The position numbers were made by a program, and so were the translations under genes. 64,000 bases of DNA from Cyanobacteriota bacterium (GTDB lineage: Bacteria > Cyanobacteriota > Cyanobacteriia > PCC-6307 > Cyanobiaceae), in assembly GCA_046052125.1 (NCBI GenBank), contig JBJOMY010000002.1, positions 288,001 through 352,000 of the forward strand. Reading direction: 5' to 3'. Positions 13,900 to 55,003 of the stretch are shown here, piece by piece. The notes beneath the pieces are model-generated. The model was not told the origin of the DNA. It searched no databases and saw only the letters and a program-made list of their open reading frames with translations. Every line of letters begins with the position of its first letter. The first letter of the stretch is position 1.

Positions 13900-13940
13900 G
13901 TGTCCGCTTTTCTGTACGGAGTGTACGGAAGTTTGGACAC
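13900..13940. repeat. 41-bp dyad element, copy 1
   Basis: GTGTCCGCT TTTCTGTAC GGAGT GTACGGAAG TTTGGACAC; 12-bp gap to the Phd-PIN ATG. Confidence 0.85.
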
Positions 13941-14116
13941 TCCGAAAAACGAGTCGATGAGGCCGCTTGAGGGGCTTCTGGTGAGACTGCTCCGCAGCGC
14001 ATTCGCAACAGCTGAACGCACAACAGCCACCGCTGTGAACGCACCACAACCAATGACCTGTCACCCCTTCCGCCTGGATGACGCCCTGGGCTTCAAGCTG
14101 CTGATGTGTCCTCTGA

Positions 14117-14821
14117 GTGCCCGGCGTGGCTGATGCCCCTCCCGGTTTCGATCACCCGATCTTCAGCGAGAGCATTCGCCTGATTCGCGCTGCGCTGGCA
14201 GAGCAGCCACCACAACTGGGGTTTGATCTCTTCAGCCTCGCGCCCCCCGAGCAGGACGTGTTGCTGCGTTTGATCCACAGCAGCGGCGATCTCAGCGTGG
14301 CGGCCGATCTGCGCTTCTCGCCGGATGCCTGCAGTGTTGGCCTCGAGGCTCTGGCGCACGGTGCTCCGATCCTCACCGACACCGCTATGGCCGCGGCTGC
14401 CGTAGCACCGATGGCGCGCCGCACCTTCGGCAACAGCGTGCACAGCGTGTTGAGCTGGGCGCCCGCTCAGGCCCCGGCCGGAAGCACACGAGCGGCGGCG
14501 GGGACGGAGCGAGCCCTGCAGGAGCATCCCGGTGCGGTGGTGTTGATCGGAAGTGCGCCGACCGCTCTTGAGTTGCTTCTCGAGCAGGTGGCCGTCGGCC
14601 AAGCCGCGGCGCCGGCCCTGGTGATCGGGATGCCGGTGGGGTTTGTGGGGGTGGCGGAGAGCAAGCGCCACCTGGCCGAGAGCGGGCTAGCGCAGATCCG
14701 CCTGGAGGGCAGTCGAGGTGGCGCCGGCTTAGTGGGAGCGGCGGCCAACGCCCTGCTGCGTCGGGCTTGGCTGGATCAGGCCGCGGCTCGGGTTTCTGCC
14801 GCCGGGCCCACCGCCACGTGA
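14117..14821 (+). CDS. cobH: Precorrin-8X methylmutase
   Basis: [35 protein letters not shown]; start may be GTG 14126. Confidence 0.9.
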
Positions 14822-17577
14822 CTGTTGGCCTCGATCCGGCCCAATACCTGGCGCGCCCGAACCACCACCGCTGCTGGAACGCCGGCGAGGCGGGCAGCCT
14901 CGATGCCGTAGCTGCGGTTGGCGCCGCCGCTTACCACCCGGTGCAGGAAGCGCAACTCGCTGCCCGTGTCTTCCACCAGCACCTGGGCGTTGGTCACGTT
15001 GGGCAGCTGATCGGCGAGTTCGTTGAGCTCGTGGTAGTGGGTGGCGAACACGCTGCGGGATCCAATCGTGTCGGCCAGGTATTCGGCTACAGCCCAGGCG
15101 ATGGAGAGGCCATCAAAGGTGGCGGTGCCGCGGCCGATCTCATCGAGCAGCACCAGGGAGCGATCGGTGGCGTGGTGAAGGATGTTGGCCGTTTCGGCCA
15201 TCTCCACCATGAAGGTGGATTGGCCAGCCGCCAGGTCGTCGCCGGCACCCACCCGCGTGAAGATCCGATCCGTGATGCCCATCCTGGCGCTCTTCGCTGG
15301 AATCCAGCTACCGATCTGGGCCATCAGCTGCAGCAGTCCCGTTTGGCGCAAATAGCAGCTCTTGCCGCTGGCATTGGGACCGGTGAGCACCACTAAGTCG
15401 GGCTTGTTGTTTTCCTCGTTCGGCACCTCAGAGCCCCAAAAGCCCAGCGTGATGTCGTTCGGCGTGAAGGGCTCGTCCACCAGCAGTTGTTCCACCACCG
15501 GGTGGCGGCCGGCCTCGATCTGCAGCAGGCGGGCTTCGGGCCCTTCGGGATCGGTGAGTTCTGGTTTGCAGTAGCCGCTGGTGGCGGCTACCTCAGCCAG
15601 GGAGGCGATGGCATCCAGCTCGGCCACCAGGCGGGCGGCGGCGCGGATTGGGGCGGCCTGCTCCCCTACTCGGCTGCGGAGCTGGCAGAACAACTCATAT
15701 TCCCGCTGGGCGGCCCGGGCCTTGAGTTGGAGGATGCGCCCCTCACGAGCCTTGAGCTCGGGGGTGATGAACCGCTCTTCGTTGGCCAGGGTTTGCCGGC
15801 GGATCCAGTGCTCCGGCACTGACGCTGCCTTGGCCTTGCTCACCGCCAGGAAGTAGCCAAAGGTGCGGTGATATTGCAGTTTGAGCGTGTTGATGCCGCT
15901 GGCGGCGCGTTCGGCTGTCTCCTGTTGGGTCAGCCAGGCCTCCTGGTCATCGAGCTGGTTGCGCAGTCCATCCAGCTCGGCATCCACGCCGTCGTGAATC
16001 AGGCCGCCTTCGCTCAGGCTCAGGGGCGGTGTGTCGAGCAGGGTGTGGCGCAGGTCCGCGGCCAGTGCCTCCAGCTCTGGCCAGGGGCGCGCCAGGGCCA
16101 GCAGTGGAGGGCTACTTGCACCCGTAAGCAGCGCCGCGAGTTGCGGGAGCCGCTCCAGCCCATCGGCCAGGGCCACCAGGTCGCGGGCTGAGGCCGTGCC
16201 GGCACCGGCGCGGCCCGCCAGCCGCTCGAGATCCCCCATCGGACGCAGCAGTTTGCGCAGGTTGATCCGTAGCCGTCGGCCGCTCACCAGCTCGCTCACT
16301 CCATCCTGACGGGCCTGAATCGCCGCCCGCTCCACCAACGGCGCCTCGATCCAGCGGCGAAGGCAGCGGCCGCCCATGGCCGTGTGGGTGCGGTCGAGGG
16401 CCCAGAGCAGCGAGCCGTGCAATCCGCCGCCCATCTGGGTGCGGGTGAGCTCCAGGTTGCGGCGGGTGGCGGCATCGAGCACCAGCTGATCGCCGGCCTG
16501 CCAGGTGGTGGGCAGCTCCAGCGGTACGCGGGTGCCGGGCTGGGTGTCGTCGAGGTAGCGCAACAGTCCGCCGGCGGCCCGCAGGCCCAGGGGCATCTCG
16601 CCCAGGCCGAGGCCATCCAGGCTGGCCAACTGGAAGCGTTGCAGCAGAAGGGCCCGCGCTTCAGGGGCGCTGAAGGGCGTGCGCGGCAGAGCTGTGAGCC
16701 GCAGGGCGTCTGGGCACCAGGCGGGCTCGCTGTCGTCCCCGGGCCAGAGCACCTCTGCGGCTTCCACCTGCAGCAGCTCCTGGTGCAGCAGATCACTGCC
16801 CTCGCGCTCGGTCACGCGGAACTCGCCGGTGCTCACATCAGCCACCGCCAGGCCCCAACGGGATTGCTCGCACACCACTGCACAGAGCCAGTTGTTGCGG
16901 CGGGCGCTCAGCAGCCCATCCTCGAGCACGGTGCCCGGGGTGAGCACGCGGGTGATCTCGCGTTTGAGCAGGGCCCCTTTGGCGGGATTGCGCGCTGAGG
17001 CCTCCTCCACTTGGTCGCACAGGGCCACGCTCAGGCCGCGGCCCACCAGCTCGGCGCAGTAGCGCTCGGCGGCGTGATGGGGAATGCCCGCCATGGGCAC
17101 CCGGCCGATCGCTTTGCCCCCCTCCTTGCCGGTGAGTGTGAGCTCCAGCAGGCGTGAGAGCTGGATCGCGTCTTCAAAAAAGCACTCGAAGAAGTCGCCC
17201 AGGCGGTAAAGCAGCACCCGCTCCGGGTGGGCGGCCTTGAGTTCCACGTAGTGGCGCAGCATCGGCGTGAGCTGCTCCGCGTCCACCAGGCTGTGGTGGT
17301 GCCAGGGGGGGAGGTCGCTGTCGCTGTGCTCGGCAGTGGCGTCAACGTCGCTTGCCTCGTCCGCCGGCGTGGGGGTCAGGTTTGACTTCTGTTTCCGCTT
17401 GCGGGGACGACGATTCGCATCGTCTGCAAGGGCCTCCTCGTTGAGCATCCCGCCGTTGAGCGACTCGCCAGCGGATGGCAGGGAGCGCTCTGCCTCAGCA
17501 GCTTCCACCGCTGGCTCCAGGCCAAACAGCGATCCCTGCAGGGCCAGCTCCGGCTGCTGCGGGGATGACGCGGTCAA
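14776..17577 (-). CDS. mutS: DNA mismatch repair protein MutS
   Basis: [44 protein letters not shown] start approximate. Confidence 0.96.
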
Positions 17578-17648
17578 GGCCTGGGTGCGGGTGCTCGATC
17601 GTAGGTCGATCGCCAAGACAGCCTTCTGGAGAGCAACGCTGCTGCGAG

Positions 17649-17689
17649 CCCTCCCTAATTCCGTGCAGACTGTACAAAAAAGAGGACGG
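17649..17689. repeat. 41-bp dyad element, copy 2
   Basis: CCCTCCCTA ATTCCGTGC AGACT GTACAAAAA AGAGGACGG; mutS/psbZ divergent region. Confidence 0.7.
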
Positions 17690-17840
17690 TCCTGAGTGCT
17701 TGCTTTCAGCCCCCGTCCCGCCTCGAGTCCCGCCCCGCCTTGCCGCCACAACTTGTGAAGGAACCCGCCAGCACTCACCAGGCCCGTGGAACCTGCGTGG
17801 GAGAATCCATCAACTGCTCGGCCGGCGCCGCCGCTGTTCC

Positions 17841-18029
17841 ATGACGATCCTCAACACCCTCACCGTTCTGGCTCTGGTGGTGATGTCGTTCGCCCTGATC
17901 GTCGCTGTGCCAGTGCTTTATGCCAGCGACGACACCAGCGGTCGTTCCAACCGCCTGATCCTCTTGGGTGGCCTGGCTTGGGTGGCTCTGGTGCTGGTGA
18001 ACTGGGGCATGAGCTACTTCGTAGCCTGA
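17841..18029 (+). CDS. psbZ: Photosystem II protein PsbZ
   Basis: 62 aa, two TM helices, [14 protein letters not shown]. Confidence 0.92.
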
Positions 18030-18050
18030 GCGCACTGAAGCGCAGCCAGC

Positions 18051-18530
18051 GTGACCGTTTTTGAAGGCCAGTTCGTCGGAGCGCAGTCGCTGCGCGTTGC
18101 CATCGTGGTGGCCCGCTTCAACGACCTGGTTACGTCCAAATTGCTGAGCGGCTGTCTCGACTGCCTATCGCGCCACGGCATCGACACCTCGTCCACCAGC
18201 ACACAGCTCGATACCGCCTGGGTGCCCGGCAGCTTTGAGATTCCTCTGGTGGCTCAGCGCCTCGCTGCCAGTGGTCGCTACCAAGTGGTGATCACCCTCG
18301 GCGCCGTCATCCGCGGCGATACCCCGCACTTCGATGTGGTGGTGGCCGAAGTGAGCAAGGGTGTGGCTGCCGTGAGCCGCGACACCGGCGTGCCCGTGAT
18401 CTTCGGGGTGCTCACCACCGACACGATGCAGCAAGCCCTGGAGCGCGCTGGCATCAAGAGCAACCTGGGCTGGAGCTATGGCCTTCAGGCTCTCGAGATG
18501 GGCAGCCTGATGGAGGCACTGCCTAGCTGA
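18051..18530 (+). CDS. ribH: 6,7-dimethyl-8-ribityllumazine synthase
   Basis: [26 protein letters not shown]. Confidence 0.96.
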
Positions 18531-18912
18531 GCTGCTTCGCCACGCTCAGCGGCAGATTCGGATTCTCGGGATTCACACTGAGGCGCTGCAGCTGAGGTTG
18601 CAGCACCAAATCCATGTCTTCCATCGGGATCGCTCCCAGCAGCACCTCATCGCCGAGCACCATGGCGCCGGTGAAGCAACGGCGGTTGGCGAAGCGCACC
18701 TCCACCGGTCCCATGTAGGGAACGCTTTGCCTGCGTCCATCGGCCAATACCACTTCGCGCCGCTCTAGTTCCCGGAGCTGCAGCTGCAGGGCCACATGCT
18801 CGGGGATGCAGAGGTGAACAGCGCCCGAATCGGCCAAGGCCTTCACCTCAAGGCCTTGCACCTCGGGATTGCTGGGGTTCAGCAGCTGCAGGCTGGCGTG
18901 AATCAATCCCAT
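18523..18912 (-). CDS. Clan AA (retropepsin-like) aspartic protease
   Basis: ALADSGA catalytic motif, [17 protein letters not shown]. Confidence 0.8.
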
Positions 18913-18984
18913 GGGGTGCTGGTGCTGGAAAAGTAGGTGGTCTTGGCGCGGTTGAAGCCGCAACCTTTGAATGCCACCGCTGTT

Positions 18985-19449
18985 TCAGTTGTTGCTCTGA
19001 TCGCGCCGCAACAGCTGCTGGCCGTTGACGCGGGCAAAGCCCAGCTGTTCATAGAAGCCGGCGCTGTTGGTGGTCATCAGATACACACGCTCCACCCCTG
19101 CCAACGCTGGTGAGGCCAGCAGCGCCTCCACCAGTTGGCGGCCCAGGCCTTGGCCCTGGAGATCTTCCGGGATCACCACATCCCAGAGCACGGCGCGGAA
19201 GACCCCATCGCTGCTGGCCCGGGCGAAGCCCACGAGGCGTTTGCCGCGCCATAGGCTCGCCACGGCGGCACTGCCCGCCAGCATGCGGCGCAGCTGCCCG
19301 AGCGATCGACCCTGGGCCCAGAAGGTGTGTTGATCCAGCAGCCGTTGCAGCTTCCAGAGGCCGCGGCTGGGACGCAGCCCCGGACCCAGCCCCAGCCAAC
19401 GCAGGCCTGGTGCACCCGGGGCGTGGATCAGCAGGCGAACGGCGTCCAT
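18985..19449 (-). CDS. GNAT acetyltransferase (Ycf52-like)
   Basis: LVGFARA, WDVVI, QGQGLGRQL acetyl-CoA motif, FYEQLGF. Confidence 0.85.
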   Translation of the reverse strand: MDAVRLLIHAPGAPGLRWLGLGPGLRPSRGLWKLQRLLDQHTFWAQGRSLGQLRRMLAGSAAVASLWRGKRLVGFARASSDGVFRAVLWDVVIPEDLQGQGLGRQLVEALLASPALAGVERVYLMTTNSAGFYEQLGFARVNGQQLLRRDQSNN

Positions 19450-19502
19450 GGGCTGATTGTCGTGCAGCAGCTGAACAAGGCCTGGTTGTGATCTGCGGGG
19501 GA

Positions 19503-19543
19503 TTGTCGGGACTTCTGTGCAGTCTGTACAGAACTCTGAATGA
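19503..19543. repeat. 41-bp dyad element, copy 3
   Basis: TTGTCGGGA CTTCTGTGC AGTCT GTACAGAAC TCTGAATGA, plus an extra TGTACA at 19553; GNAT/rmlA divergent region. Confidence 0.8.
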
Positions 19544-19625
19544 TCACCGATTTGTACAGCAGTGATATGAGCTCCCAGGAGTTCACCATTCACCCCAAGA
19601 CCACGGGTCATAACCTGGCGGCGCG

Positions 19626-20519
19626 ATGAATCAGCCGATGCGCAAGGGAATCATCCTGGCGGGGGGCAGTGGCACCAGGCTGCATCCGATCACCCAGGCG
19701 GTGAGCAAGCAGCTGCTGCCGGTGTACGACAAGCCGATGATCTATTACCCGCTCAGCACGCTGATGCTGGCGGGGATCCGTGAGGTGTTGATCATCAGCA
19801 CGCCCCACGATCAGCCGGCTTTCCAGCGGCTCCTGGGGGATGGTTCCGCCTGGGGAATGAGCATTCGCTACGCGATTCAGCCCAGCCCGGATGGCCTCGC
19901 TCAGGCCTTTCTGATCGGCGCCGATTTTCTGGCGGGCTCACCGGCGGCGCTGGTGCTGGGCGACAACCTCTTCCACGGTCACGACCTGGCGCCACAGCTG
20001 TTGAGCAGCAACGGCAGCCAGGCCGGCGCCACGGTGTTTGCCTATCAGGTGCGTGATCCTGAGCGCTACGGCGTGGTGGAGTTTGCGGCCGACGGCCGCG
20101 TGCTCAGCCTGGAGGAGAAGCCGGTCAAACCCAAGAGCCGCTATGCCGTGACCGGCCTCTACTTCTACGACCACACGGTGGTGGAGCGGGCCCGTCGGGT
20201 GGTGCCCTCGCAGCGGGGAGAACTCGAGATCACCGATCTCAACCGTCAATACCTGGAGGAAGGTTTGCTGCGGGTGGAACTGATGGGCCGGGGCATGGCC
20301 TGGCTGGATACGGGCACCTGCGATTCGCTTCATCAGGCCGCCAGCTTCATTCGCACCCTGGAGCACCGTCAGGGTCTGAAGGTGGGCTGCCCCGAGGAGG
20401 TGGCCTGGCGCCTGGGCTGGATCAGCACCGAGCAGCTCGAGGCCCTGGCGGCTCCGCTGCGCAAGAGTGGCTACGGCGACTATCTGCTCCAGGTTTTGGA
20501 GGAATCCCATGCAGGCTGA
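19626..20519 (+). CDS. rfbA: Glucose-1-phosphate thymidylyltransferase
   Basis: [30 protein letters not shown]. Confidence 0.96.
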
Positions 20520-38181: not shown

Positions 38182-40089
38182 ATGAGATTTACAACCTTAC
38201 TTCAACGTGTGAGCGTCTTTGTTGATGCGCTGAGTAGGAATCCTCGGAAATTGATGCTCGTGCCGAGGTACGTGCAGCGCATGTTGCGTGAGGGTCCGGA
38301 CGAAACGCTGCGGCGGCTTCGGCGGATCACCGATCCCAGGCGCTTCTCTGTGGATTATGAGGCGTGGCGAGCGGAGTTTGGCACCACCGCCGCTGAAAAA
38401 GCCGCCATGGCTGACTGGGCGCAGGCATTAGTAGATCCGCCAATCATTGCGGTGCTGATGCCGGTTTTCAACCCCAGGCCCGAATGGCTGCAGGCGGCGA
38501 TCGAATCGGTGCGCGCCCAGCTTTATCCCCATTGGCAGCTCTGCATCGCGGATGACTGCTCAACCGATCCGCGTATTCGTCCGCTGCTGGAGGCGGCCAT
38601 GGCCGCTGATTCGGGCATCCAGGTCGTGTTCCGCGAGCGCAACGGGCATATCTGCGCCAGTTCGAACAGCGCTCTGGAGCTGGTGCAGGCTCCCTGGTTG
38701 GCATTGCTCGATCACGACGATCTGCTGCCGGATGAAGCCCTCATCTGGGTCGCCAAGGCAATCACCGATCACCCAAAGGCAAAGCTCTTCTATTCAGACG
38801 AAGACAAGCTCAGCCCAGCCGGTGAGCTGTTTGATCCCTACTTCAAGGGCGATTGGAACCCCGTGCTAATGGAAGGCCAGAACACTTTCTCGCATCTGGG
38901 TGTGTACGCCACTGATCTGGTGCGCCAGGTGGGTGGGTTTCGCGAGGGCTTCGAGGGATCCCAGGATCATGATCTAGTGCTGCGCTGCAGCGAACAGCTC
39001 CGGCGCGAGCAGATCGTTCATATTCCGCGTGTTCTGTATCACTGGCGGGTGCACCCTGACAGCACCGCCGCTGGCACAAAGGCCAAGCCTTACACCCTAA
39101 AGGCTTCGATGCGCGCAATCGCGGAACATTTGCACCGCCGTCGATTCTGTCTGCAGCAGCCACCGAGTTGGAGCCCAGTGGGTTTCAAGGCCCAGCTTGA
39201 CTTGCCTGATCCGGCGCCCCGGGTAAGCGTGATCATTCCAACCCGCAACGGGCTGGAGGTGCTCAAGCCCTGTCTTACAAGCTTGCTGGGGATCACGCGC
39301 TATCCAGCACTGGAGGTGTTGGTGGTGGATAACGGCTCTGATGATTCCGCCACGTTGCAGTTCCTCACGGACCTGGAGGGGAAAGGCAAGATCCTGGTGT
39401 TGCACGATCCAAGCCCGTTCAACTACTCAGCCCTGAACAACCGGGCTGTTGAGCAGGCCACAGGTGAGTTGATCTGTTTGCTCAATAACGACATCGAGGT
39501 GATTGATGCCGGCTGGTTGGAGGAGATGGTGGTACAAGCCATGCGGCCTGGCGTGGGTGCCGTGGGTGCGCGACTGCTCTATCCCAATTCCACTATTCAG
39601 CATGGTGGCGTTCTCCTCGGTGTCGGCGGTGTGGCTAATCATGCCCATCTCGGCTTGCCAGGTGAACATCCGGGATACTTTGGACGCGCACAGCTCACCC
39701 AGGAGATGGCAGCCGTCACGGGTGCGTGCCTACTTGTGAGCCGAAGTAACTATTTTGCCGTGGGCGGACTCGATGCCGAAAATCTGAAGGTGGCCTTCAA
39801 TGATGTGGATTTCTGCCTGAAGCTGCGTGAGCAGGGTCTGCAGAACGTGTACGCACCTGCAGCCAAACTGATCCATCACGAGTCGGTGAGCCGCGGTCAG
39901 GATCTGAGCCCTCAGAAGGCGGCACGTTTTGCTGCTGAAGTGGCCTGGATGCAGCAACGTTGGGGTGAGCAGTTGCTCCATGATCCGGCTTACAATCCAA
40001 ATCTAAGTGTGGACAATCCTAACTTTTGCCTTGCATGGCCGCCGCGGCTGGAGCGATGGCAGCTTATTGAGTCAGCATGTGCAAGCTGA
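38182..40089 (+). CDS. Two-domain GT2 glycosyltransferase, likely O-polysaccharide polymerase
   Basis: Two GT2 modules: LDHDD/GSQDHDL and LNNDIE/AVTGACL/FNDVD; DPAYNPNL. Confidence 0.85.
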   Translation: MRFTTLLQRVSVFVDALSRNPRKLMLVPRYVQRMLREGPDETLRRLRRITDPRRFSVDYEAWRAEFGTTAAEKAAMADWAQALVDPPIIAVLMPVFNPRPEWLQAAIESVRAQLYPHWQLCIADDCSTDPRIRPLLEAAMAADSGIQVVFRERNGHICASSNSALELVQAPWLALLDHDDLLPDEALIWVAKAITDHPKAKLFYSDEDKLSPAGELFDPYFKGDWNPVLMEGQNTFSHLGVYATDLVRQVGGFREGFEGSQDHDLVLRCSEQLRREQIVHIPRVLYHWRVHPDSTAAGTKAKPYTLKASMRAIAEHLHRRRFCLQQPPSWSPVGFKAQLDLPDPAPRVSVIIPTRNGLEVLKPCLTSLLGITRYPALEVLVVDNGSDDSATLQFLTDLEGKGKILVLHDPSPFNYSALNNRAVEQATGELICLLNNDIEVIDAGWLEEMVVQAMRPGVGAVGARLLYPNSTIQHGGVLLGVGGVANHAHLGLPGEHPGYFGRAQLTQEMAAVTGACLLVSRSNYFAVGGLDAENLKVAFNDVDFCLKLREQGLQNVYAPAAKLIHHESVSRGQDLSPQKAARFAAEVAWMQQRWGEQLLHDPAYNPNLSVDNPNFCLAWPPRLERWQLIESACAS

Positions 40090-40724
40090 TGCTCTTACCC
40101 CACCACACAAGGAATAGCCTAACGCTAGTTGTTGTCTTTCACCACGTTGTTCAGTAGCCAATGAGGTGTGAGGTCGCTACCGGTTAACGGGGCACCGCCC
40201 AACACAGAGCTCATGCCCCATGCATACACATGCCCGTCTGAGGCAGTAGATCACCATATTATTTGACTGTCCCATCTTAGACCCTGCTGGTGGAGTGGGC
40301 GTATTCGATAACCTTTGAGACCTCAAACGAGCTACACAACTGGCTACCGAGTTACTAGGAATCTATAATGGTCGCTGTGTCATATGGCTCTCGATGGCTG
40401 TACCCCTATGCAGCTCCGTGGACTGTTGCGGATTTCTGAATGACTTGGTGAGAAAACACACTTAATCCATAGAAGGTCGCAACGTGATGATCGGGCATGC
40501 CTTCAACCGAGCCCCCGGATTTGCAGATGTTGTCTTTGGTGCGATCTTTCGGGTGCTCTGCTCAATGCCATCGAGAAACTCTTCGAGGCCGACTGTATTC
40601 TTTGTGCCCTCCACTCTGATCCGAAATCCTGATCGGGTGATCATTATCTGGGAGTAGAGCCCGCGGACTGATTGATGTGCGAACATGGGCTCTAAAGGCC
40701 ATGCATCAGTCATTGCTCGACTCG

Positions 40725-41774
40725 TCAGTTCATTGAGATATAGGAGTTTAGCTTATGTACAAGCCCTGAGATGAGTCTTTTGGAGGCTCTAATTGGTCTT
40801 GTTAGTCTCCATGACAAGCTCCCGGTTAGTTGATTAAGCATGGAGCGAAACATGTCTAGTTCAGTTCTTGCTCTGTCTAATTCAGTCTTAACTGTTTCTA
40901 GTTCATGATTAGATAAACTGAGTTCGCTTGATAAACGGTCCAACTCGCAGACTGCATCGAATAGGCTTCTCGGCCTATTGCTTGCCTGAGGAAAGGCTGG
41001 CATTGAATGACCTAGGCTCTTAATTCCTTCTGCCACTTGCTCCTTATACCCTCCCATTGTTCTTTCCTTGATGCGAGAAAGGGAGCCTGATGATGCTTTC
41101 CTGATAACGCACATAGAGTCGTAAAACTCTATAGATAAAATATTCTGCAAAAACTCCTGACTTACTAAGCAGCCATGGATACTGGTTATACTGTTAATGT
41201 ATTCATGAACCTGAATATCCTGTCTGTACCAATGACCAGAGTTTATGCAGTCACATAGAGCTTTAAAAAATTCCATTCCAGAGTCTGGGCGGCACAGCCC
41301 GCCTCCCCATTCGCTCCAGTAACAGCAGTGAAGGTCCTCGGCAATATAAATGCCGCCGGGCCTTAGTTTTGGAAAAAACTCTACAAATGATCGAACTATG
41401 TCGCGGGAGGTATGAGATCCGTCTTCAATAACTATGTCTAGACTGTCCGTGACTGCCTCGATCTTCTGAACGGTAGTGGAATCCGTGGCGTCCCCAATGA
41501 TGACATGAATACGAGGATCATCAAACGTAAGGCGAGCGCATTCCTTATCGATGTCGCAGCCTATCAAGTTACGTGCACTTGAAAAATACTGCGCCCAAGT
41601 CTCAAGAGAACCTCCATTTTGAACCCCTATTTCAAGTAGACTAATGGGTTGTTCTCGCCACTTGGAAAGCAATCGATTGTAGACTTCAAGATACAGGTCC
41701 CATTTGTCTGATAGCTTTCCATTGGATCTGCAGTGAATCTCTGCCAAGTCCGGGCGGTGATTTAGCATGATCAC
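40725..41774 (-). CDS. SAM-dependent methyltransferase with C-terminal coiled coil (chain terminator-like)
   Basis: LLEIGVQNGGS, IEDGSH, GGIYIAED; heptads ELDRLSS/ELETVKT/ELDRART; SWRLTRPIR. Confidence 0.75.
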   Translation of the reverse strand: MIMLNHRPDLAEIHCRSNGKLSDKWDLYLEVYNRLLSKWREQPISLLEIGVQNGGSLETWAQYFSSARNLIGCDIDKECARLTFDDPRIHVIIGDATDSTTVQKIEAVTDSLDIVIEDGSHTSRDIVRSFVEFFPKLRPGGIYIAEDLHCCYWSEWGGGLCRPDSGMEFFKALCDCINSGHWYRQDIQVHEYINSITSIHGCLVSQEFLQNILSIEFYDSMCVIRKASSGSLSRIKERTMGGYKEQVAEGIKSLGHSMPAFPQASNRPRSLFDAVCELDRLSSELSLSNHELETVKTELDRARTELDMFRSMLNQLTGSLSWRLTRPIRASKRLISGLVHKLNSYISMN

Positions 41775-43162
41775 ACTCCGTTGGAGATAGTTTGAAAATC
41801 AATTGCATCAATGCAGGCACCTGCTAGGCCGTAGCGAACTCTGCTTGACAGAACTTTTAGGATAACCGCGTCTTCAACCCAATGGTGTTGAATATTTTCA
41901 TTAAGATCTCCATCTGCTACAGACGCCATTAGTGTGTATTCTCCAGCTGGTAGCGCTGGCATCCGTAAGCTAAAGGAAGCGATGAGTTCGTCGCCTGGCG
42001 CAGCCGGGTGAATCGAATCAGGATTCTCTGCAAATAATGTATTTTCTCCAAATAAGTCTTGGCCTAGTCTGTCTTTGACTATAAAACCGAGGATTGGCTT
42101 GCTTATTGTTTTGTTGGCTAATGCATGAACAATAATCTTGACTTGCTCCCCTCCGCAAAAAATATTAGAAGGCAATCCACTGGTGTCTTGTTCTATTCTT
42201 ACCCCAACTAGGTCAGCATCGCCTGTCTTCCATCCCTTGGCTTCACTCAAATTGTCTTCCCATTGACATGTTGTCGAGTAGTCGATGCAACCATGGGTCT
42301 TCCTGCTCCAATCTTGCGGATTATCTACGGCTGCCAAAGTATTGGCGTCTTCGTCTACATTATTCTTGCCCAAAGCATAAAGCTTCACTTCTTCTCCATA
42401 ACTTGTCGCTTGGCAAAAACGGAGATAGTCAAGAACTACCTCCTTGCAGTTTCCAGTTCCGAGGGCTTGTCCTCTGGATAGCCATAGGGCATGACTGCAA
42501 AGGCTTTTGACTGCTTCAGAGTCATGGCTGACAAACAGGAGGCAGCGCTCTTCGCGCATTTTGCGTATAAAACGCATACACCGCTGAACAAATACTGCAT
42601 CTCCAACAGCTAACGCTTCATCTACAACCAGTATGTCTGCATTAACGTGGGCGATGACGGCAAAAGCCAACCTGACTGCCATGCCGCTTGAGTATGCTTT
42701 AACGGGCTGACGAATGAAGTCGCCAATATCTGCGAAGGAAAGAATATCATCCAGCCTTGCATCTGTTTCTTGTTTGCTCAACCCCAGCATCGAAGCATTC
42801 AAGTATACATTCTCGATGCCCGTGAATTCCGGGTTGAAACCGCTGCCCAGCTCCAGCAGGGCAGCGATGCGTCCATTGGTTTGGATGCTTCCTTCCGTGG
42901 GGGTTAGGGTGCCGCAGATCAATTGCAGCAGAGTGCTTTTGCCGCTGCCGTTTCTGCCGATGATGCCCAGGCTTTCGCCCCTTTTTACTTCAAAATCTAC
43001 ATTCCGCAGAGCCCAGAATTCGCTGAAATATTGCCGGCGCCCCCGCCATAATGCCTGTTTCAGCCGAGCATTTGGATTGTCATAAATCCGGTAGCATTTA
43101 CCTAGGTCGTGGCACTGTATTACAGGATCGAGATTGTTTGCCATGGCTGCTTCAGAGAACAT
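41771..43162 (-). CDS. wzt: Polysaccharide ABC exporter ATPase with C-terminal carbohydrate-binding domain
   Basis: GRNGSGKST, YSSGM, DEALAVGD, ~200-aa C-terminal extension. Confidence 0.92.
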   Translation of the reverse strand: MFSEAAMANNLDPVIQCHDLGKCYRIYDNPNARLKQALWRGRRQYFSEFWALRNVDFEVKRGESLGIIGRNGSGKSTLLQLICGTLTPTEGSIQTNGRIAALLELGSGFNPEFTGIENVYLNASMLGLSKQETDARLDDILSFADIGDFIRQPVKAYSSGMAVRLAFAVIAHVNADILVVDEALAVGDAVFVQRCMRFIRKMREERCLLFVSHDSEAVKSLCSHALWLSRGQALGTGNCKEVVLDYLRFCQATSYGEEVKLYALGKNNVDEDANTLAAVDNPQDWSRKTHGCIDYSTTCQWEDNLSEAKGWKTGDADLVGVRIEQDTSGLPSNIFCGGEQVKIIVHALANKTISKPILGFIVKDRLGQDLFGENTLFAENPDSIHPAAPGDELIASFSLRMPALPAGEYTLMASVADGDLNENIQHHWVEDAVILKVLSSRVRYGLAGACIDAIDFQTISNGV

Positions 43163-43964
43163 CGGCGAAGGCTCGCTTCGACCGCCGGAACAGGCGGAAA
43201 GTCAGCTCGCAGGCAACGACGCTGATCAATAGCCCCAGGATTACATAGGCGGGTTGCGGGCTCAGACCCTGCACGCTCACGCGGCGGGTCTGTTCGATCA
43301 CCTGGGCGATCGGATTCAGGCCCAGTAGCGGCTGCCAGCGCGCTGGCAGAGCGGATGTTGGAAAAAAAATCGGGCTCATAAACATCAGCATGTTCAAGCC
43401 CACACTGATCAACTGGCCGATATCGCGGACGAACACACCAGCGGCTGAAAGAAGCCAGGTGCAGGCGAGGGAGCCCAGAAGCAACGGCATCCAAACCAGT
43501 GGCAGCCACAGCAGCGTGATCGGTAAACCACGGAAAGCAATTAGCTCGAAAACCAAGAGTATCAACACACTGGTGAATGCATGAAAGCTGGCACTGCCTA
43601 CCGCCACGCACCCCAGAACCTCCAGTGGAAAGACAACTTTCTTCACGTAGTTTGGATTACTCACCACCAAGTCTGGCGCTCGGCTCACACATTCGCCGAA
43701 CAGATTGAAGACAATCAGGCCAGCAAACAGATTCACCGCAAATCCGAATGGCCCAGCTTGTTCGAGGCCGCCCCAGCGCGCTTTGAATACCTGTGAAAAT
43801 ACGAAGGTGTACACCGCCAGCATCGCCAGCGGAGTGATGAAGCTCCAACCAATTCCCAGCGCTGAGCCCCGGTAGCGCCCCAGTACTTCGCGCTCTGTGA
43901 GCCGCCACCACAACTCACGGTGCTGCCAGAGGCTGTGGGGAAAGCGCAAGACGTGATGCATCAC
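43152..43964 (-). CDS. wzm: Polysaccharide ABC exporter permease
   Basis: RYRGSALGIGW, NYVKKVVFP, FVRD, NPI, FADVL. Confidence 0.92.
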   Translation of the reverse strand: MMHHVLRFPHSLWQHRELWWRLTEREVLGRYRGSALGIGWSFITPLAMLAVYTFVFSQVFKARWGGLEQAGPFGFAVNLFAGLIVFNLFGECVSRAPDLVVSNPNYVKKVVFPLEVLGCVAVGSASFHAFTSVLILLVFELIAFRGLPITLLWLPLVWMPLLLGSLACTWLLSAAGVFVRDIGQLISVGLNMLMFMSPIFFPTSALPARWQPLLGLNPIAQVIEQTRRVSVQGLSPQPAYVILGLLISVVACELTFRLFRRSKRAFADVL

Positions 43965-43970
43965 TTGTGA

Positions 43971-46841
43971 TCAAGCCGACTGAGCTGCCGCTGCCGGTTG
44001 GAACATAAACATCGAATAAATAACATTCCTGCGCATCTGCGTCATCATCTCCAGAAACATGTCGTACCCCTCATTCTTGTATTCGATCAGCGGATCCTTC
44101 TGCCCGTATCCGCGTAGGCCAACCGATTCGCGCAGGGCATCCATCGCCTGCAGATGCTCGCGCCAGAGGGTATCGATCTGCTGCAGGATGAAGAAGCGTT
44201 CGGCTTCCCGCATCAAGCCTGGGCGTTGCTGCTCGATCTGTCCCTCCTTGATGTCGTAGGCGTTGCGCAGCTGCTCCTGAAGGAAGGCCTTGAGCTCCTC
44301 CACCGACAGGCCACGCAGCTGCTCCGGCTTGAGATCTTCCAGCAGATAGACAAATTCCTGCACTTTGCTCACCAGACGACCCAGATCCCACTCTTCGGGC
44401 GGCAGATCAGGATTCACATAGGCCTCCACGATGTCGTCCATCGTGCGCTCGCCGTAGCCCACCACCTGTTGCTTGAGCTCTCTGCCTTCAAGTACACGCC
44501 GGCGCTCGGCATACACGGCCTTGCGCTGGTTGTTCATCACTTCGTCGTACTCGAACACCTGCTTGCGGATGTCGTAGTAATAGGTTTCCACCTTCTTCTG
44601 GGCGCCTTCGAGTGAGCGGGTGAGCATGCCTGATTCGATCGGCATGTCTTCCTCCACGCGGAAAGCATTCATCAGACCGGCCACGCGGTCGCCGCCGAAG
44701 ATGCGCAGCAGGTTGTCTTCCAGGGAGAGGAAGAAGCGGGTGGAGCCGGGGTCGCCCTGGCGTCCGGCGCGTCCGCGCAGCTGGTTGTCAACGCGGCGGG
44801 ATTCATGGCGTTCAGTACCGATCACGTGCAGCCCGCCGGCCTCGCGTACCTTTTGATCTTCGGTTTGGGTGACTGCTTCGTATTCGGTTTTGACTCGTGC
44901 GATTAGGTTGCGCAGGGCTTGCACCTGCGGGTCGCTTGTGGGTGCCTTCTCAGCCGCCTGAGCGATCCGATCCTCCAGCTCCAGCACCGTGAGTTGGCGG
45001 TCACCCCAGGCCTTCACCAGATCATGGGCCAACTCCGACAGCGACTGTTCGGTGGCGTCGCTGAGCGCGCAGGGGTAGAGCGCACCGATTGCTCGTGCTT
45101 CCGACGGGGCTTTGGTTGCTGCTTGTGACGAGGCTGCTCCGAAGCCGGGAGCGGCTTCCGGTGCTCGCTGCAACGGCACCGGTGGTTTGTGACCCTCTTC
45201 CGGCCGAACCAGGCGCGGCAGCAGCACCTCCCGCAGCTTGAGGCGGGCCATGTAATCGGCGTTGCCGCCCAGGATGATGTCGGTTCCGCGGCCGGCCATG
45301 TTGGTCGCGATGGTCACGGCGCCGGCTCGGCCCGCCTGGGCCACAATCTCGGCTTCCCGCTCCACGTTTTCCGGCTTGGCGTTGAGCAGGTTGTGGGGGA
45401 TCTGCTGCTCGGCGAGGAGCGCGCTCAGCAGTTCGGATTTCTCCACGCTGGTGGTGCCCACCAGCACCGGCCGGCCGGTTTTGTGCACTTCAGCCGTTTC
45501 CAGGGCCACGGCGCGCCACTTCGCCGCTTCGTTTTTGTACACCTGATCGGTCCAGTCGGCGCGGGAGCGCACGCGGTTGGTGGGAACGATCGTGACCTCG
45601 AGCTTGTAGGTCTTCTCGAATTCCACCTCTTCCGTTTTGGCGGTACCGGTCATCCCCGCCAGGCGCGGATAGAGCAGGAAGAAGTTTTGGTAGGTGATCG
45701 AGGCCAGCGTTTGCGTTTCGGGCTGGATCGGCAGGCCCTCTTTGGCCTCGATCGCCTGGTGCTGGCCATCGCTCCAGCGCCGGCCCGGCATCACCCGGCC
45801 GGTGAACTCATCCACGATCACCGCATCGCCACCACGCACGATGTAGTTCACGTCCTTGATGAACAGCTCCTTGGCCTTCAGGGCGTTGTTGATGTAGTGC
45901 GCCCAGGGGTCGGCCGGATCGAACAGGTCGCTCACGCCCAGGAGTTGTTCGGCCTTGGCGTAGCCCTCATCAGTGAGGGTGCAGTTGCGCTGCTTCTCAT
46001 CCACCTCGTAGTCGCCCTCGGGGTCGATGCCGTCCTTGCCGAGCTCAGCGGCGCGCACCAGCGCATTGGCCACCTCGGCGGCCTTCTGATACTTCTCCTG
46101 CGGGCGTTCCACCTGGCCGGAGATGATCAGCGGTGTGCGGGCCTCGTCGATCAGGATCGAATCCACCTCATCGATCACGCAGTAGTGGAAGTCGCGCTGC
46201 ACCACCTCGGCGATGTCCGCCGCCATGTTGTCGCGCAGGTAATCGAAACCCAGCTCTGAGTTGGTGGCATAGGTGATGTCGCAGCCATAGTTCTGGCGGC
46301 GGGTGGCGGGATCCATGTCTTGCTGGATCAGGCCCACCGACAGCCCCAGGAAGCGATGCACCTGACCCATCCACTCGGCATCGCGCCGGGCGAGATAGTC
46401 GTTCACCGTGACCACGTGCACCCCCCGGCCGGTGAGGGCATTGAGGTAGGCGGGCAGGGTGGCCACCAGTGTTTTGCCCTCGCCGGTTTTCATCTCGGCG
46501 ATCTGGCCGTCGTGCAGCACCATGCCGCCGATCAGCTGTACATCGAAGTGGCGCATCCCCAGCACACGCTTGCCGGCTTCGCGCACCACGGCGAAGGCCT
46601 GGGGTAGCAGCTCATCGAGCAGCTTTCGCTCCCGCTCGAGCGTGGTTTCGATGCTCAGGCCACGGTTTTTGCATTCCAGCTGCAGAGCGGCGAGCTTGCC
46701 CTGGAATTCCGCCGTTAGGCCCCGCAGCTCCTCGTCTGAGAGGGGAGCCACCTCCTCTTCGAGCAGGTTGATATCGGAAACGATCGGCTGGTAGCGCTTC
46801 AGCTTGCGGGCATTGGGGTCACCCAGCAGCAGCTTGAGCAT
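43971..46841 (-). CDS. secA: Preprotein translocase SecA
   Basis: [37 protein letters not shown]. Confidence 0.97.
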
Positions 46842-49098: not shown

Positions 49099-49139
49099 CT
49101 GTCCAGAGTCCTGTACAAACCGTACGGATCTCTGAATGC
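49099..49139. repeat. 41-bp dyad element, copy 4
   Basis: CTGTCCAGA GTCCTGTAC AAACC GTACGGATC TCTGAATGC; plmA/hydrolase divergent region. Confidence 0.85.
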
Positions 49140-49232
49140 TTCGGCAAGGCTTGTCCCACGCCCATGGGTCACCCCGGCCTGATCACTCGGTAGGGGCTGT
49201 CAGGCTGGTGGAACGGAGTTGGCAGCTGCGAT

Positions 49233-49970
49233 TTGACAATCCAGGCCGAATGGGTGCAGGTGCGTACGCCCGAGGGTGTGATGCCTGCCTGGTGGGCGCG
49301 GCCGGCTGCGCCGCGAGCGGCTGTGCTGTTGCTGCCGGAAGTGTTTGGGGTGAATCCCTGGGTGCGCAGCGTGGCAGATCGATTGGCGCAGGAGGGCTAT
49401 GCCGCCCTCGCCATCAGCACCTTTTGGCGCACGGCGCCCCAGCTGGAGGCCGCCTACGACGAAGCCGGTCTGGCCTTAGGCCGTGAGCACCGCGATCAGG
49501 TTCGGGCCGATCAACTGCTAACCGATGTGACAGCTGCTGCCGCATGGATGCAGCAACACCACAGCGTTAATGGCCTGGGCTCAAAGCCGCTCGGTTGCGT
49601 GGGCTTTTGCTTCGGTGGCCAACTGGCGATGCTCGCCGCCACCCTGCCGCTGATCGCCGCAACCTGTGATTTCTACGGCGCTCGCGTGTCCACCGATCGC
49701 CCCGGTGGTGGTCCACCCACCCTGGCGGATGTGCCGCAGATTCCCGGCAGGTTGTTGTGCTTTTGCGGAGATCAGGATCCGCTGATGCCGCCTGAGGAGC
49801 TCAGTGCCATTGAGCGAGCTCTAGCCGCCGTGCCGGGTGGGCGCCATCGTTTCCTGAAGGCTCCAGGGGCAGGCCACGGCTACATGTGCGAAGCCCGCGC
49901 CGATTTCAGCCCTGAAGCGTCAGCCGCCGGTTGGGCGGCGATGTTGGGGTTGTTCGGCGAAGCGCTTTGA
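49233..49970 (+). CDS. Dienelactone hydrolase family protein
   Basis: PEVFGVN, GFCFGG, FYG, AGHGY. Confidence 0.88.
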   Translation: MTIQAEWVQVRTPEGVMPAWWARPAAPRAAVLLLPEVFGVNPWVRSVADRLAQEGYAALAISTFWRTAPQLEAAYDEAGLALGREHRDQVRADQLLTDVTAAAAWMQQHHSVNGLGSKPLGCVGFCFGGQLAMLAATLPLIAATCDFYGARVSTDRPGGGPPTLADVPQIPGRLLCFCGDQDPLMPPEELSAIERALAAVPGGRHRFLKAPGAGHGYMCEARADFSPEASAAGWAAMLGLFGEAL

Positions 49971-49995
49971 AGGTGGCGACGCCACCCAGCGGCCC

Positions 49996-50643
49996 TTAGC
50001 CCTCGCCCGCAGCGGCAGCAGCCTGTTGGCGAGGAGTTTCGATCGTGCGCACGGCCTTGCTGGCGGCGGCTTCGGCTTCCTTTTCCTTGGCCAGCGGCGT
50101 TTTACGCGGCGTGAGGAACATGATCATGTTGCGGCCCTCGCGCTTGGGATCCTGCTGGATCTCGGCCTTTTCCTCGAGGTCCTTAGCCATGCGCTTGAGC
50201 AGCTGTTCGGCCAGGGCAGTGTGCTGGATCTCGCGGCCGCGAAAGATCACGGTGCACTTCACCTTGTCGCCAGCCTTGAGGAAGCGGGAAGCCTGGCCGA
50301 TGCGGACATCGTAATCGTGCTGGTCAATTTTGTAGCGCATCTTCACCTCTTTGACTTCGGTTTGATGCGACTTTTTCTTGGCTTCTTTGGCCTTCTTTTC
50401 CTGCTCGAATTTGAACTTGCCGTAGTCCATGATCCGGCACACCGGCGGATCAGCCTTCTCGCTCACCAGCACGAGGTCGAGCTCGCGGTCTTTCGCTACC
50501 TCGAGGGCCGCCTCCCGCGTAATCACCCCCAGCTGACTGCCGTCTGCATCCACCACCCGGAGCTGGGGGTAAGCGATGCGGTCGTTGATGTTGGGGAGCT
50601 CCCGTACGGGAGCGCGGCGGTCAAAACGGGGACGGGGTGGCAT
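49996..50643 (-). CDS. infC: Translation initiation factor IF-3
   Basis: [22 protein letters not shown]. Confidence 0.96.
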
Positions 50644-50688
50644 TCAGGCGGGCGAGAGGACGAAAAGAAAACAGTGACTGTTCATCCT

Positions 50689-53782
<3,094 letters not shown>

Positions 53783-53783
<1 letters not shown>

Positions 53784-54115
53784 TGAGCGGTGTTCACGCA
53801 CCCTCAGCGATGCCGCGCGTGGCGGCCTGGCGTTGGGGCGCTCTGTTGGCCTTTGCCCTGTTCGCCCCTGTGAGCCTGCCGGCGGGTGGCCCCGATCGCC
53901 GCGCCCTGGAGTTGCGCCGCCGCAGCGCTGGTGATCCGCTCCTGAGTACCGGCGGATTAGCTCTGCAGTGTTCCCCTGAGCAGCAGGCTCCGGTGCTGGC
54001 TGAATTAGGTGCCGATCAGCCCCTGCGGGTGTTGCGTAGCTGGCGCACTGGCGGTGGCGAGCAGTGGCTGCAGGTTGAAACCGCTGAACGGCGGGGTTGG
54101 CTGGCGGTGGCCTGA
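53783..54115 (+). CDS. Small SH3-like domain protein with N-terminal hydrophobic segment
   Basis: LRVLRSW...WLQVE...RGWL bacterial SH3-like pattern. Confidence 0.6.
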
Positions 54116-54119
54116 ACCG

Positions 54120-54482
54120 ATGCGCGATGTGTTGTTGGTGTCGATCGGGGCCATCCCTGGCGCCTGGTTGCGCTTTCGCCTGGTGAACCACTTCGAGCCG
54201 CTGGTGCCCCGCAAGCACTGGGCCACGTTCGGCGTGAACATCACGGCCTGTTTCGCTCTCGGGTTGATCGCGGCCCTGGCTGGCCGTTGCGGCCCCGACC
54301 ATCAGATCAGTTTGCTGCTGGCCACAGGCTTCCTGGGCAGCCTCAGCACCTTCTCCACCTTCATCGTGGAGCTGCTTCAGTCCTGGATGGCTGGCCTGCG
54401 CCGCCAGACCGTGTGGCTGATGCTGGGCTCCGTGCTCACAGGCTTACTTGCTGTCGTGGCGGGGATGGTGATCGGTGGCTGA
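54120..54482 (+). CDS. crcB: Fluoride channel Fluc/CrcB
   Basis: GAIPGAWLR, VNITAC, GFLGSLSTFSTF. Confidence 0.9.
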   Translation: MRDVLLVSIGAIPGAWLRFRLVNHFEPLVPRKHWATFGVNITACFALGLIAALAGRCGPDHQISLLLATGFLGSLSTFSTFIVELLQSWMAGLRRQTVWLMLGSVLTGLLAVVAGMVIGG

Positions 54483-54891
54483 TCCACTTCAGGGGCGCCG
54501 CCTGAGCTTTGAGCTGCGGGAACTGTTGTTGGTTGCCATCGGTGCCGTGCCCGGTGCACTGCTGCGCTGGCAGAGCGGCGTGCAGCTGGGCCCTCACCTG
54601 GGAGGCAGCGCCGGCGCCGATCTGTTGGTGAATCTGGTGGGCTCCTTTCTGCTGGGCTTTCTGGCCGGGCCGATCCCCCGCCGCACGGGTTTGGTGCTCC
54701 TGCTGGGGATTGGCTTCTGCGGCTGCCTCACCACCTTCAGCAGTTGGATGCTTGATGTGGTGAAGCTGATTCAGGCTGGCCGCCCGCTCTGGGGCCTGTT
54801 GCTGATCGTGGGCAGCCTGGTGCTTGGTTTGTTCAGTGCTGCTGGCGGCTTGGGACTGAGCCGGTTGGTGTTCCGCCGCGAGCCTGCCTAA
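54475..54891 (+). CDS. crcB: Fluoride channel Fluc/CrcB, second copy
   Basis: GAVPGALLR, VNLVGS, GFCGCLTTFSSW. Confidence 0.9.
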   Translation: MADPLQGRRLSFELRELLLVAIGAVPGALLRWQSGVQLGPHLGGSAGADLLVNLVGSFLLGFLAGPIPRRTGLVLLLGIGFCGCLTTFSSWMLDVVKLIQAGRPLWGLLLIVGSLVLGLFSAAGGLGLSRLVFRREPA

Positions 54892-54962
54892 ACGGGCACC
54901 ACTGCTTGCCGCCTGTGCGGCTGCTTGTGACTTGTCCTGGGTATTGAGTGCCTTAGATCGGA

Positions 54963-55003
54963 CTGTCCAGAATTTCGTACAGACCGTACGTAACTCTGGA
55001 CAG
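54963..55003. repeat. 41-bp dyad element, copy 5
   Basis: CTGTCCAGA ATTTCGTAC AGACC GTACGTAAC TCTGGACAG; between convergent crcB and gpx. Confidence 0.85.

Follow-up and report, generated by a model that had tools for sequence, protein, structure and literature searches.

What are the five 41-bp palindromic elements that lie dispersed through a 64-kb stretch of a picocyanobacterial genome, and which protein would recognise them? The stretch (hereafter the window) covers positions 288001-352000 of contig C2 of genome G000, an assembly of 2.64 Mb in 10 contigs with 64-67% G+C and a completeness of 99.96%. A first-pass annotation of this DNA had described the elements as an intergenic family in the region of the likely replication origin, with functionally unrelated neighbours and no characterised motif that fits them. 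The analysis reported here points instead to a protein encoded directly beside one of the copies. With a probability of roughly 0.65, judged from sequence patterns and from analogy with better-studied systems, the elements are binding sites for P0001, the product of the phdPIN gene, in which an antitoxin domain of the Phd/YefM type is fused to a PIN domain. They would most likely represent a YefM-type operator, in a variant with four boxes and a 9-bp spacing, that serves this conserved fusion protein. A pair of TGTACA palindromes is characteristic of antitoxin operators of the YefM type (Kedzierska et al., 2007; PMC1802561), and the statement that no characterised motif fits is not supported.

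The 41-bp family and the Phd-PIN gene beside copy 1

All five 41-mers are present exactly as first claimed (Table 1). In the window their GTRC-N5-GTAC core is matched 8 times, counting both strands, at 5 places, with an expectation of 0.94 (standard deviation 1.02, largest 4), and none of 100 dinucleotide-preserving shuffles reached 8. The same core occurs at 48 places in the whole of G000, most of them unrelated to the family. A scan of G000 with a symmetrised position weight matrix (PWM), built from 9 full-length seed copies and used with a cut-off of 12 bits, gave 16 matches, with 14 on C2, 1 on C1 and 1 weak match on C4. A covariance model built from 15 G000 copies recovered all 15 together with one terminator element (C1:108798-108842, E-value 4e-4). 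The family has about 15 members in G000, more than the five first noted. Flanks beyond about 45 bp are unrelated among the copies, showing that the elements are not part of a longer repeat; on the same ground a miniature inverted-repeat transposable element was rejected. Filled and empty orthologous spacers were too diverged to be compared for a signature of insertion. At gathering thresholds Rfam returned a tRNA as its sole match in the window, and a known RNA family was rejected accordingly.

The core consensus, sharpened with sites from relatives, is CTGTACAG-N-CTGTACAG. It consists of two palindromic octamers whose TGTACA hexamers lie 9 bp apart, centre to centre, in every copy, one octamer often being degenerate in G000 (GTGC, GCGC). 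The outer arms, CTGTCCAG and CTGGACAG, are one base off the core octamer, are weaker, and are set 12 bp further out than the inner octamers, measured between centres, so that the 41-mer may be read as four octamer-like boxes with a spacing of 12-9-12 bp. The dyad is real, mirror cells being paired in 74% of cases versus 28-50% when the partner column is slid. An asymmetric centre, RGTCT, gives each copy an orientation, which tracks neither replichore nor flanking transcription. In G139, a genome of genus g33, three overlapping matches at a single place (C16:169133-169167) lie 9 bp apart, indicating four tandem CTGTACAG octamers.

The view that the neighbours are functionally unrelated, which the first-pass annotation extended to the Phd-PIN gene it named beside copy 1, fails there: copy 1 lies upstream of the gene, with its end 12 bp from the ATG of P0001. 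P0001 is laid out as a Phd/YefM-type N-domain (residues ~6-45), a conserved linker LQGSGRxCW and a VapC-type PIN domain (~108-239). It is encoded by a single reading frame in G000, and the homologues found are near 243 aa, in a search restricted to proteins of 133-426 residues. The N-terminus matched PhdYeFM_antitox (PF02604) with an E-value of 9e-7 and 29.0 bits (cut-off 29.8) in a protein search, and with 30.6 bits, over the cut-off, in a six-frame search of the genome. A profile of 47 homologues matched VapB46, a Phd-type antitoxin of M. tuberculosis (6jqy_A, E-value 8e-5). In the AlphaFold2 model (mean predicted local distance difference test score, pLDDT, 81.6; predicted template modelling score, pTM, 0.71), the C-terminal domain matched VapC-type PIN chains in Foldseek with probability 1.00 and target template modelling (TM) scores of 0.6-0.8, and the matches to P0001 included the VapBC2-DNA complex of Rickettsia felis (3zvk) and the FitAB-DNA complex (2bsq). 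Three acidic residues, D112, E164 and E210, are invariant in the 47 homologues, and D225 is nearly so. Some database homologues carry both PF02604 and PF01850, and there are source-named Phd/YefM antitoxins of Cyanobium, Synechococcus and Vulcanococcus among them. The Phd match at the N-terminus and the PIN fold together suggest that P0001 is a single-chain VapB(Phd-type)-VapC-like protein.

Modelling of a P0001 homodimer gave a passing score of 0.64, compared with 0.04 for the best control; of proteins solved as one-chain pairs, 20 of 30 reached the mark for a pass, and of those solved as single chains, 1 of 23. Agreement between the runs covered at least 85% of contacts, with pLDDT of at least 72, and the predicted interface is symmetric, PIN-PIN, and formed by residues 148-209. 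Because VapC dimers have already been solved, this pass may mirror likeness to them rather than give independent support.

The stop codon of phdPIN overlaps the start of holA (TGATG, window 13151-13158, minus strand), which implies translational coupling of a toxin-antitoxin (TA)-like gene to the gene for the clamp-loader delta subunit. Directly upstream of holA is where phdPIN lies in all 8 loci examined, from 6 genera, and the order mutS / cobH / phdPIN-holA-lysC was found wherever the examined stretch extended to those genes. With their codons overlapping, phdPIN and holA probably form one operon under a copy-1 operator. No sigma-70-like promoter was found at copy 1, that consensus being a poor model for a genome of 65% G+C. 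Parts of the phdPIN frame (window 13156-13849) were matched at 90-100% by contigs of four metatranscriptome runs from four studies, and the X4 contig carried 155 nt of phdPIN without a difference; such contigs show presence in RNA libraries only, DNA carry-over being possible, and do not allow transcription, strand or ends to be inferred.

In the mechanism proposed, copy 1, overlapping the phdPIN promoter region, would be the operator through which the phdPIN-holA operon is autoregulated. On the model of YefM, each TGTACA palindrome would be occupied by a single Phd-domain dimer, and PIN-PIN contacts, like those of VapC dimers in the VapBC-DNA and FitAB-DNA complexes, would link the DNA-binding units into a larger assembly. 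An assembly linked in this way would account for the fixed length of about 41 bp and for the dyad symmetry. The other 14 copies would be secondary sites for P0001, several of them at orthologous places across species, and the preferred guess is that they retain or titrate P0001 on the chromosome, form roadblocks locally, or do both. Their role could thus be titration or anchoring of a potentially active nuclease, a set of roadblocks, or organisation of the origin domain. The anatomy of the motif, its adjacency to and co-occurrence with phdPIN, the folds of P0001 and the operon coupling are observed; binding of P0001 to the sites, its stoichiometry, repression and any role of the secondary sites are putative.

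Conservation and setting of the putative sites

The candidate binder and the element keep company among relatives. In the genus set (22 genomes at least 90% complete, G000 included), a full-length-like homologue of P0001 is present in 17. It was not found in G010, G006, G016 or G007, in the last of which dnaN was also not found, and G014 holds only a 28-aa fragment. A copy of the element lies upstream of phdPIN in all 17 genomes that have the gene: the strict pattern GTRC-N5-GTRC falls within 160 bp of it in 14, while the remaining copies have one core mismatch (G017, G038) or lie about 200 bp upstream (G012). A covariance model search of the small genomes G033, G034 and G040 gave no match; their core pattern occurs at 1-2 places per genome, one of them at phdPIN's own promoter.

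Across the family set (151 genomes at least 95% complete), P0001 was found in 33 genomes, and the motif, taken as a 17-mer with at most 1 mismatch, in 31 of these, at 1-13 places each. The reversed pattern, used as a control, matched none of the 151. Fisher's test for co-occurrence of protein and motif gives p = 2e-22, a value that is overstated because the relatives are not independent. Within genus g27 the identical 4 of 11 genomes have protein and motif, and within g33 the protein is present in 7 of 11 genomes and the motif in 8. Adjacency in 17 of 17 genomes together with co-occurrence over 151 indicates P0001 as the probable binder. A parallel within the same genome is offered by a canonical Phd/YefM gene (C4:163488-163727, 60 bits), where GCGTAC-N8-GTACGC lies 18 bp upstream and makes up a paired-GTAC operator whose centres are the classical 12 bp apart.

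The first-pass annotation had made function depend on conservation in relatives, and the sites are indeed kept at syntenic places. When 40 sites of six relatives were mapped by their flanks, about 25 fell at syntenic spots of G000, with flanks 70-93% identical, and every window copy has at least one orthologue. Orthologues of copy 1 were found in G037, G041 and G039, those of copy 2 in G037 and G041, and those of copy 5 in G036, G037 and G041. Copy 4 has orthologues in G037 and G041 as well as in G061, which belongs to another genus, and C2:273282 and C2:359179 likewise have an orthologue in another genus. For copy 3 the orthologue is tentative (G008, with support from the left flank only).

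The setting of the copies is mixed. Some lie between divergent genes (recN/ABC1 kinase, GNAT/rmlA, plmA/hydrolase, phdPIN/cobH), others between tandem genes (queG-TPR, kinase-ruvB, rimM-manC, and upstream of gcvH), and others between convergent genes (crcB/gpx, ycf54/unknown); C2:41523 and C2:46998 lie inside genes. Gene calls were based on G+C at third codon positions, with over-extended starts, and neighbour identities were taken from Pfam. Copy 2 lies between mutS (minus strand, its real start about 300 bp off) and a small plus-strand open reading frame (ORF). For the five window copies, the claim of an intergenic position is correct or probably so, copies 2 and 3 overlapping only 5' extensions by which the mutS and GNAT frames were called too long; it does not extend to the whole family, in which C2:41523 and C2:46998 sit in reading frames. 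The former is in the variable linker of a ylqF/rbgA GTPase frame (TIGR03596, 280 bits), is followed by a conserved C-terminal block, and is retained inside that frame in 4 genomes (G000, G036, G041 and G039). The latter is within the NAD-binding domain of a dehydrogenase and has one good arm only. Copy 5 has the top PWM score, 53 bits, and lies 12 bp past the gpx stop, which places it in no promoter position. This mixture of promoter, convergent and coding positions does not fit an ordinary promoter regulon.

Two side observations concern the window itself. Around copy 5 (window 54009-55609), two tandem crcB genes converge on gpx and a 124-bp spacer holds the element; in G033, G034 and G040 the crcB frame reaches the gpx match, with little or no spacer and no site (loci L051-L053). 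At window 40001-44000 the G+C fraction is 0.47-0.52, versus about 0.65 elsewhere; this stretch adjoins secA and may be a horizontally acquired segment.

Table 1. Genes, family members and terminator-type elements. Plain numbers are window positions; other positions name the contig, or the genome and contig.
Feature	Position	Strand	Description
dnaN	1654..2817 (C2:289654-290814)	+	
holA	12140..13153	-	DNA polymerase III delta subunit; TIGR01128, 171 bits, cut-off 80
phdPIN	13156..13887	-	P0001, 243 aa, ATG at 13887; candidate binder of the sites
Copy 1	13900..13940		41-bp palindrome; core GTAC-N5-GTAC at 13914-13926; between divergent phdPIN (-) and cobH
Copy 2	17649..17689		core GTGC-N5-GTAC intact, outer arms degenerate
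Copy 3	19503..19543		between divergent GNAT (-) and rmlA (+, ATG at 19626)
Copy 4	49099..49139		between divergent plmA (GntR family, -) and dienelactone hydrolase gene (+)
Copy 5	54963..55003		most perfect palindrome; between convergent crcB (+) and gpx (-)
Family cores on C2, first seven	C2: 41523, 46998, 109822, 273282, 276906, 285445, 301914		
Family cores on C2, remaining seven	C2: 305663, 307517, 337113, 342977, 359179, 365357, 390367		
Family core off C2	C1:749985		
Terminator-type element	G000 C1:108798-108842		
Terminator-type element	G036 C4:51852		locus L016
Terminator-type element	G032 2303206		locus L027
Terminator-type element	G039 C13:14460		locus L049

Several observations weigh against P0001 as the reader of these elements. 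The link between protein and sites is drawn from adjacency, co-occurrence and family analogy, and the counts are phylogenetically dependent, since only 7 of 33 genera carry P0001. The motif also occurs, at one place each, in 8 of the 118 genomes without a detected P0001, and G014 has 10 core matches despite its 28-aa gene fragment. On the protein, the Pfam score of the N-domain is borderline, and no Phd-Phd contacts are predicted with confidence in the homodimer model. With 9 bp, the inner spacing departs from that of yefM-yoeB in E. coli (12 bp; PMC1802561), a distance of 12 bp being found only from outer to inner arm. An autoregulatory operator alone leaves the clustering of secondary sites (see below) unexplained, and a binder of double-stranded DNA leaves unexplained an excess of complementarity between the mirrored spacers, which exceeds column expectation in G000 (reached by 50 of 5000 shuffles) and in G041 (14 of 5000) and is non-significant in G037 (400 of 5000) and G039 (974 of 5000). 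Nor does binding by P0001 explain why some copies form the tips of genuine bidirectional terminators.

Alternative explanations and chromosomal position

The last two points speak for one alternative, unlikely as it is: that the elements are driven by structure, independently of P0001, and have been spread or kept as hairpins of RNA or single-stranded DNA (terminators, attenuators, mRNA stabilisers or elements like the repetitive extragenic palindromes, REP). All window copies except copy 2 are predicted to form hairpins of -16 to -22 kcal/mol, with z of -3.9 to -5.6 versus shuffles, and there is the excess of mirror complementarity in the variable columns. In G041, whose protein is 60% identical, the outer arms are different (CCTCC...GGAGG) but fully compensated, and the spacers are perfectly compensated. 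Formation of hairpins or cruciforms, or templated correction of quasi-palindromes, might lie behind the complementarity of the spacers; mismatches of the G-T/T-G kind (86) are about as frequent as those of the A-C/C-A kind (77), a comparison that is no real strand test because the copies from relatives are unoriented. Bidirectional terminators (A-run, GC stem, T-run) carry a TTCTGTAC-N5-GTACAGAA core in their apical part, and the one in G032 is the orthologue of C1:749985, a copy in G000 that is not a terminator. Three G000 copies lie between convergent genes, as the hairpin alternative would allow; the orientation of the family relative to flanking transcription is nevertheless mixed, with 4 of 15 antisense, and one copy is retained inside an ORF. 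The specific sequence is conserved as well: the hairpin of copy 2 is no better than shuffles (z -1.4) and its core is retained, which argues that sequence, beyond structure, is conserved. This bears out the proposal of the first-pass annotation that conserved sequence, rather than pairing, suggests a protein site, in that the elements are of a sequence-conserved, protein-binding type and not merely hairpins. Strict co-occurrence with one protein gene, and the copy at that gene's promoter, likewise speak for a binder.

An intrinsic terminator was rejected for copies 1-5: copy 1, which was scanned, has no terminator-like site, and no T-run follows any of the window copies (2-5 as read from the sequence). 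A REP element mobilised by a RAYT was rejected because the Y1/RAYT transposase domain (PF01797) has no match in G000 and the family has just 15 copies, 14 of them on one contig and not spread genome-wide.

Where the sites lie on the chromosome brings in a second alternative. The likely oriC region is marked here by dnaN; the cumulative GC-skew minimum of C2 falls at about 270-280 kb, that is, 10-20 kb left of dnaN, and dnaA is on a contig other than C2. A contig holding 20.5% of the genome, C2 carries 14 of the 15 sites (P = 3e-9), and 11 of the family sites are found in the stretch from -16 to +101 kb around dnaN. Sites lie a median of 50 kb from dnaN, versus 135 kb for random positions on C2 (P = 0.003). 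The uniform genome-wide distribution that the first-pass annotation had set against an origin role is not what is seen in G000, where the sites are strongly concentrated around dnaN. Throughout the genus, phdPIN is 9-18 kb from dnaN, so gene and origin are indistinguishable as reference points there.

Relatives show how far this clustering extends. In the complete genome G032 (g1), with phdPIN 11 kb from dnaN, 6 of 11 sites lie within 65 kb of dnaN, and the median distance is 66 kb versus 699 kb. In two genomes of g33 gene and origin are further apart. G148 has phdPIN 74.5 kb from dnaN, and of its 10 sites on the same contig 7 are found past the gene, at 0-56 kb from it, with spacings that resemble those of G000; the complete G061 has phdPIN at 73 kb, 5 sites no further than about 107 kb from dnaN (clustering P = 3e-4), and 3 further sites in a 124-kb span located 520-640 kb from dnaN. 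This distant span corresponds to a contig that is without sites in G000 and has three in G041. The g33 cluster appears to be an inherited synteny block. In the complete G170 (g27), with phdPIN at 82 kb, the own-promoter copy is accompanied by four dispersed sites (P = 0.5), and in the complete G122 (g45), with phdPIN at 106 kb, clustering is weak (P = 0.07 relative to dnaN, 0.03 relative to phdPIN). Clustering near the origin is thus genuine in this lineage, being seen in this genus and one other and not in G170 of a third; it is largely inherited in relatives because the sites are orthologous, and it is not a universal property of the system.

It is quite unlikely that the elements exist to organise the origin domain, with P0001 bridging or condensing an oriC-proximal array in place of ParB-parS and in a manner like that of MatP-matS. 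Such a role would suit a genome in which no ParB_N domain (PF02195) was matched, a result that also led to the rejection of ParB itself as the binder; it would suit the 14 of 15 sites on the dnaN contig, the clustering near dnaN in G000, G032 and G061, and the coding and convergent positions, which are those of structural sites. The coupling of phdPIN to holA and the modelled PIN-PIN dimer (0.64 vs 0.04), which may reflect just a likeness to solved VapC dimers, have been counted in its favour too. The orthology of the sites nevertheless makes the clustering largely a matter of descent, the g33 cluster follows the synteny block of phdPIN at 73 kb from dnaN, and a second group of sites lies 0.5-0.65 Mb from dnaN in G061 and G041. 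Sites are dispersed in G170 and only weakly clustered in G122, the 2.4-Mb genomes G033, G034 and G040 retain the protein with 1-2 core matches, one of them at its own promoter, and 118 of the 151 family genomes are without the protein. A fuller version, in which freshwater and brackish picocyanobacteria lacking ParB would use a domesticated single-chain TA protein, co-translated with HolA and equipped with two dimerisation modules, to bridge an acquired array of high-affinity 41-bp sites around oriC into an origin macrodomain or centromere-like structure, has a similarly slim chance of being right.

That the elements are operators of LexA (an SOS box), PlmA or NtcA is very improbable: the GTAC half-sites recall the cyanobacterial LexA box (consensus RGTACNNNDGTWCB), recN, ruvB and mutS adjoin three copies, and GntR-family operators often contain GT..AC, with copy 4 upstream of plmA, but LexA is rejected by the N5 spacing of all copies and by a distinct N4 class elsewhere in G000, PlmA by its presence in 151 of 151 family genomes, which cannot account for a motif present in 39, and NtcA by its requirement for GTA-N8-TAC where the sites, as read from the sequence, have GTA-N7-TAC, one base short. 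The earlier exclusion of NtcA, LexA and canonical parS is supported. The separate GTAC-N4-GTAC class, which resembles the cyanobacterial LexA-box set, comprises 12 places with AGTAC..GTACT flanks on C1, C2, C3, C4 and C6, its sole C2 place (C2:81608) being about 208 kb from dnaN. GTAC pairs with N3 and N6 spacing occur once each in G000, and the lexA gene is at C4:156837-157028.

Significance and comparison with known systems

Type II antitoxins are usually regarded as repressors of their own small, mobile operons. Here a fused antitoxin-PIN protein is fixed at one locus in at least 6 genera and appears translationally coupled to holA, and an operator-type palindrome has been multiplied to 5-18 conserved chromosomal copies, many of them near the origin and some in genes. 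If P0001 binds these copies, nature would here offer a clear case of a TA module that has taken on DNA binding across the whole genome, and, with a single protein and a single 41-mer, a tractable entry to the organisation or regulation of the origin region in ParB-less picocyanobacteria, about which little is known. If it binds its own promoter only, the extra copies would still lack an explanation; and if it did organise the origin, a TA module would have given rise to a chromosome-organising system. No description of the 41-bp motif was found in the literature searched, which is no proof that none exists.

Among the systems that the family resembles, REP elements and bacterial interspersed mosaic elements (BIME) share imperfect palindromes of 35-45 bp that are mostly intergenic and in some cases lie between convergent genes. 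The present elements differ in their low copy number, in their strongly conserved internal sequence and in their tie to a Phd-PIN gene, no RAYT having been found in G000. Another likeness is to parS-ParB and matS-MatP, which likewise combine short palindromes, in 10-25 copies within one chromosomal domain and tolerated in genes, with a binder related to DNA-binding folds of plasmid or TA type. No ParB was found in G000, the consensus is different and the clustering is not universal; bridging or spreading would be hypothetical for the P0001 sites. MqsA and HipB offer a further parallel, each having an antitoxin-type domain that recognises copies of its operator palindrome at other loci; neither is known to have 5-18 long, conserved copies that lie partly near oriC and in some cases outside promoters.

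As a protein, P0001 resembles the type II VapBC module, combining an antitoxin DNA-binding domain with a PIN domain that has an acidic active site. Its PIN fold is that of the VapBC-DNA and FitAB-DNA complexes (3zvk, 2bsq), its N-domain that of a Phd-type VapB (VapB46, 6jqy), and its PIN dimers could, as in those complexes, join two DNA-binding units over an extended inverted repeat. It is unlike them in being one polypeptide rather than two genes, in being kept vertically at a fixed locus ahead of holA in six genera, and in having many chromosomal sites rather than one operator. The available portion of a classification of the PIN superfamily describes PIN groups found only in cyanobacteria and Phd-fold antitoxins as common PIN partners (PMC5499597), and in that portion no description of the Phd-PIN fusion or its sites was met.

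The closest relative of the element itself is the E. coli yefM-yoeB operator. Two palindromes, one long and one short, make up this operator, their TGTACA cores lying 12 bp from each other, and yefM homologues commonly have paired TGTACA boxes upstream, no more than 80 bp from the start codon (Kedzierska et al., 2007; PMC1802561). Copy 1 lies within such a distance of an antitoxin start and the other 14 copies do not. The differences are a 41-bp dyad in four parts, about 14 extra copies away from the gene, and the fusion of P0001 to a toxin-like domain that is PIN rather than YoeB. The likenesses are two adjacent palindromes with TGTACA cores and palindromy that extends beyond the hexamer, a position just upstream of a Phd/YefM-family gene that overlaps its promoter region, and paired boxes that are conserved upstream of homologues in many genomes.

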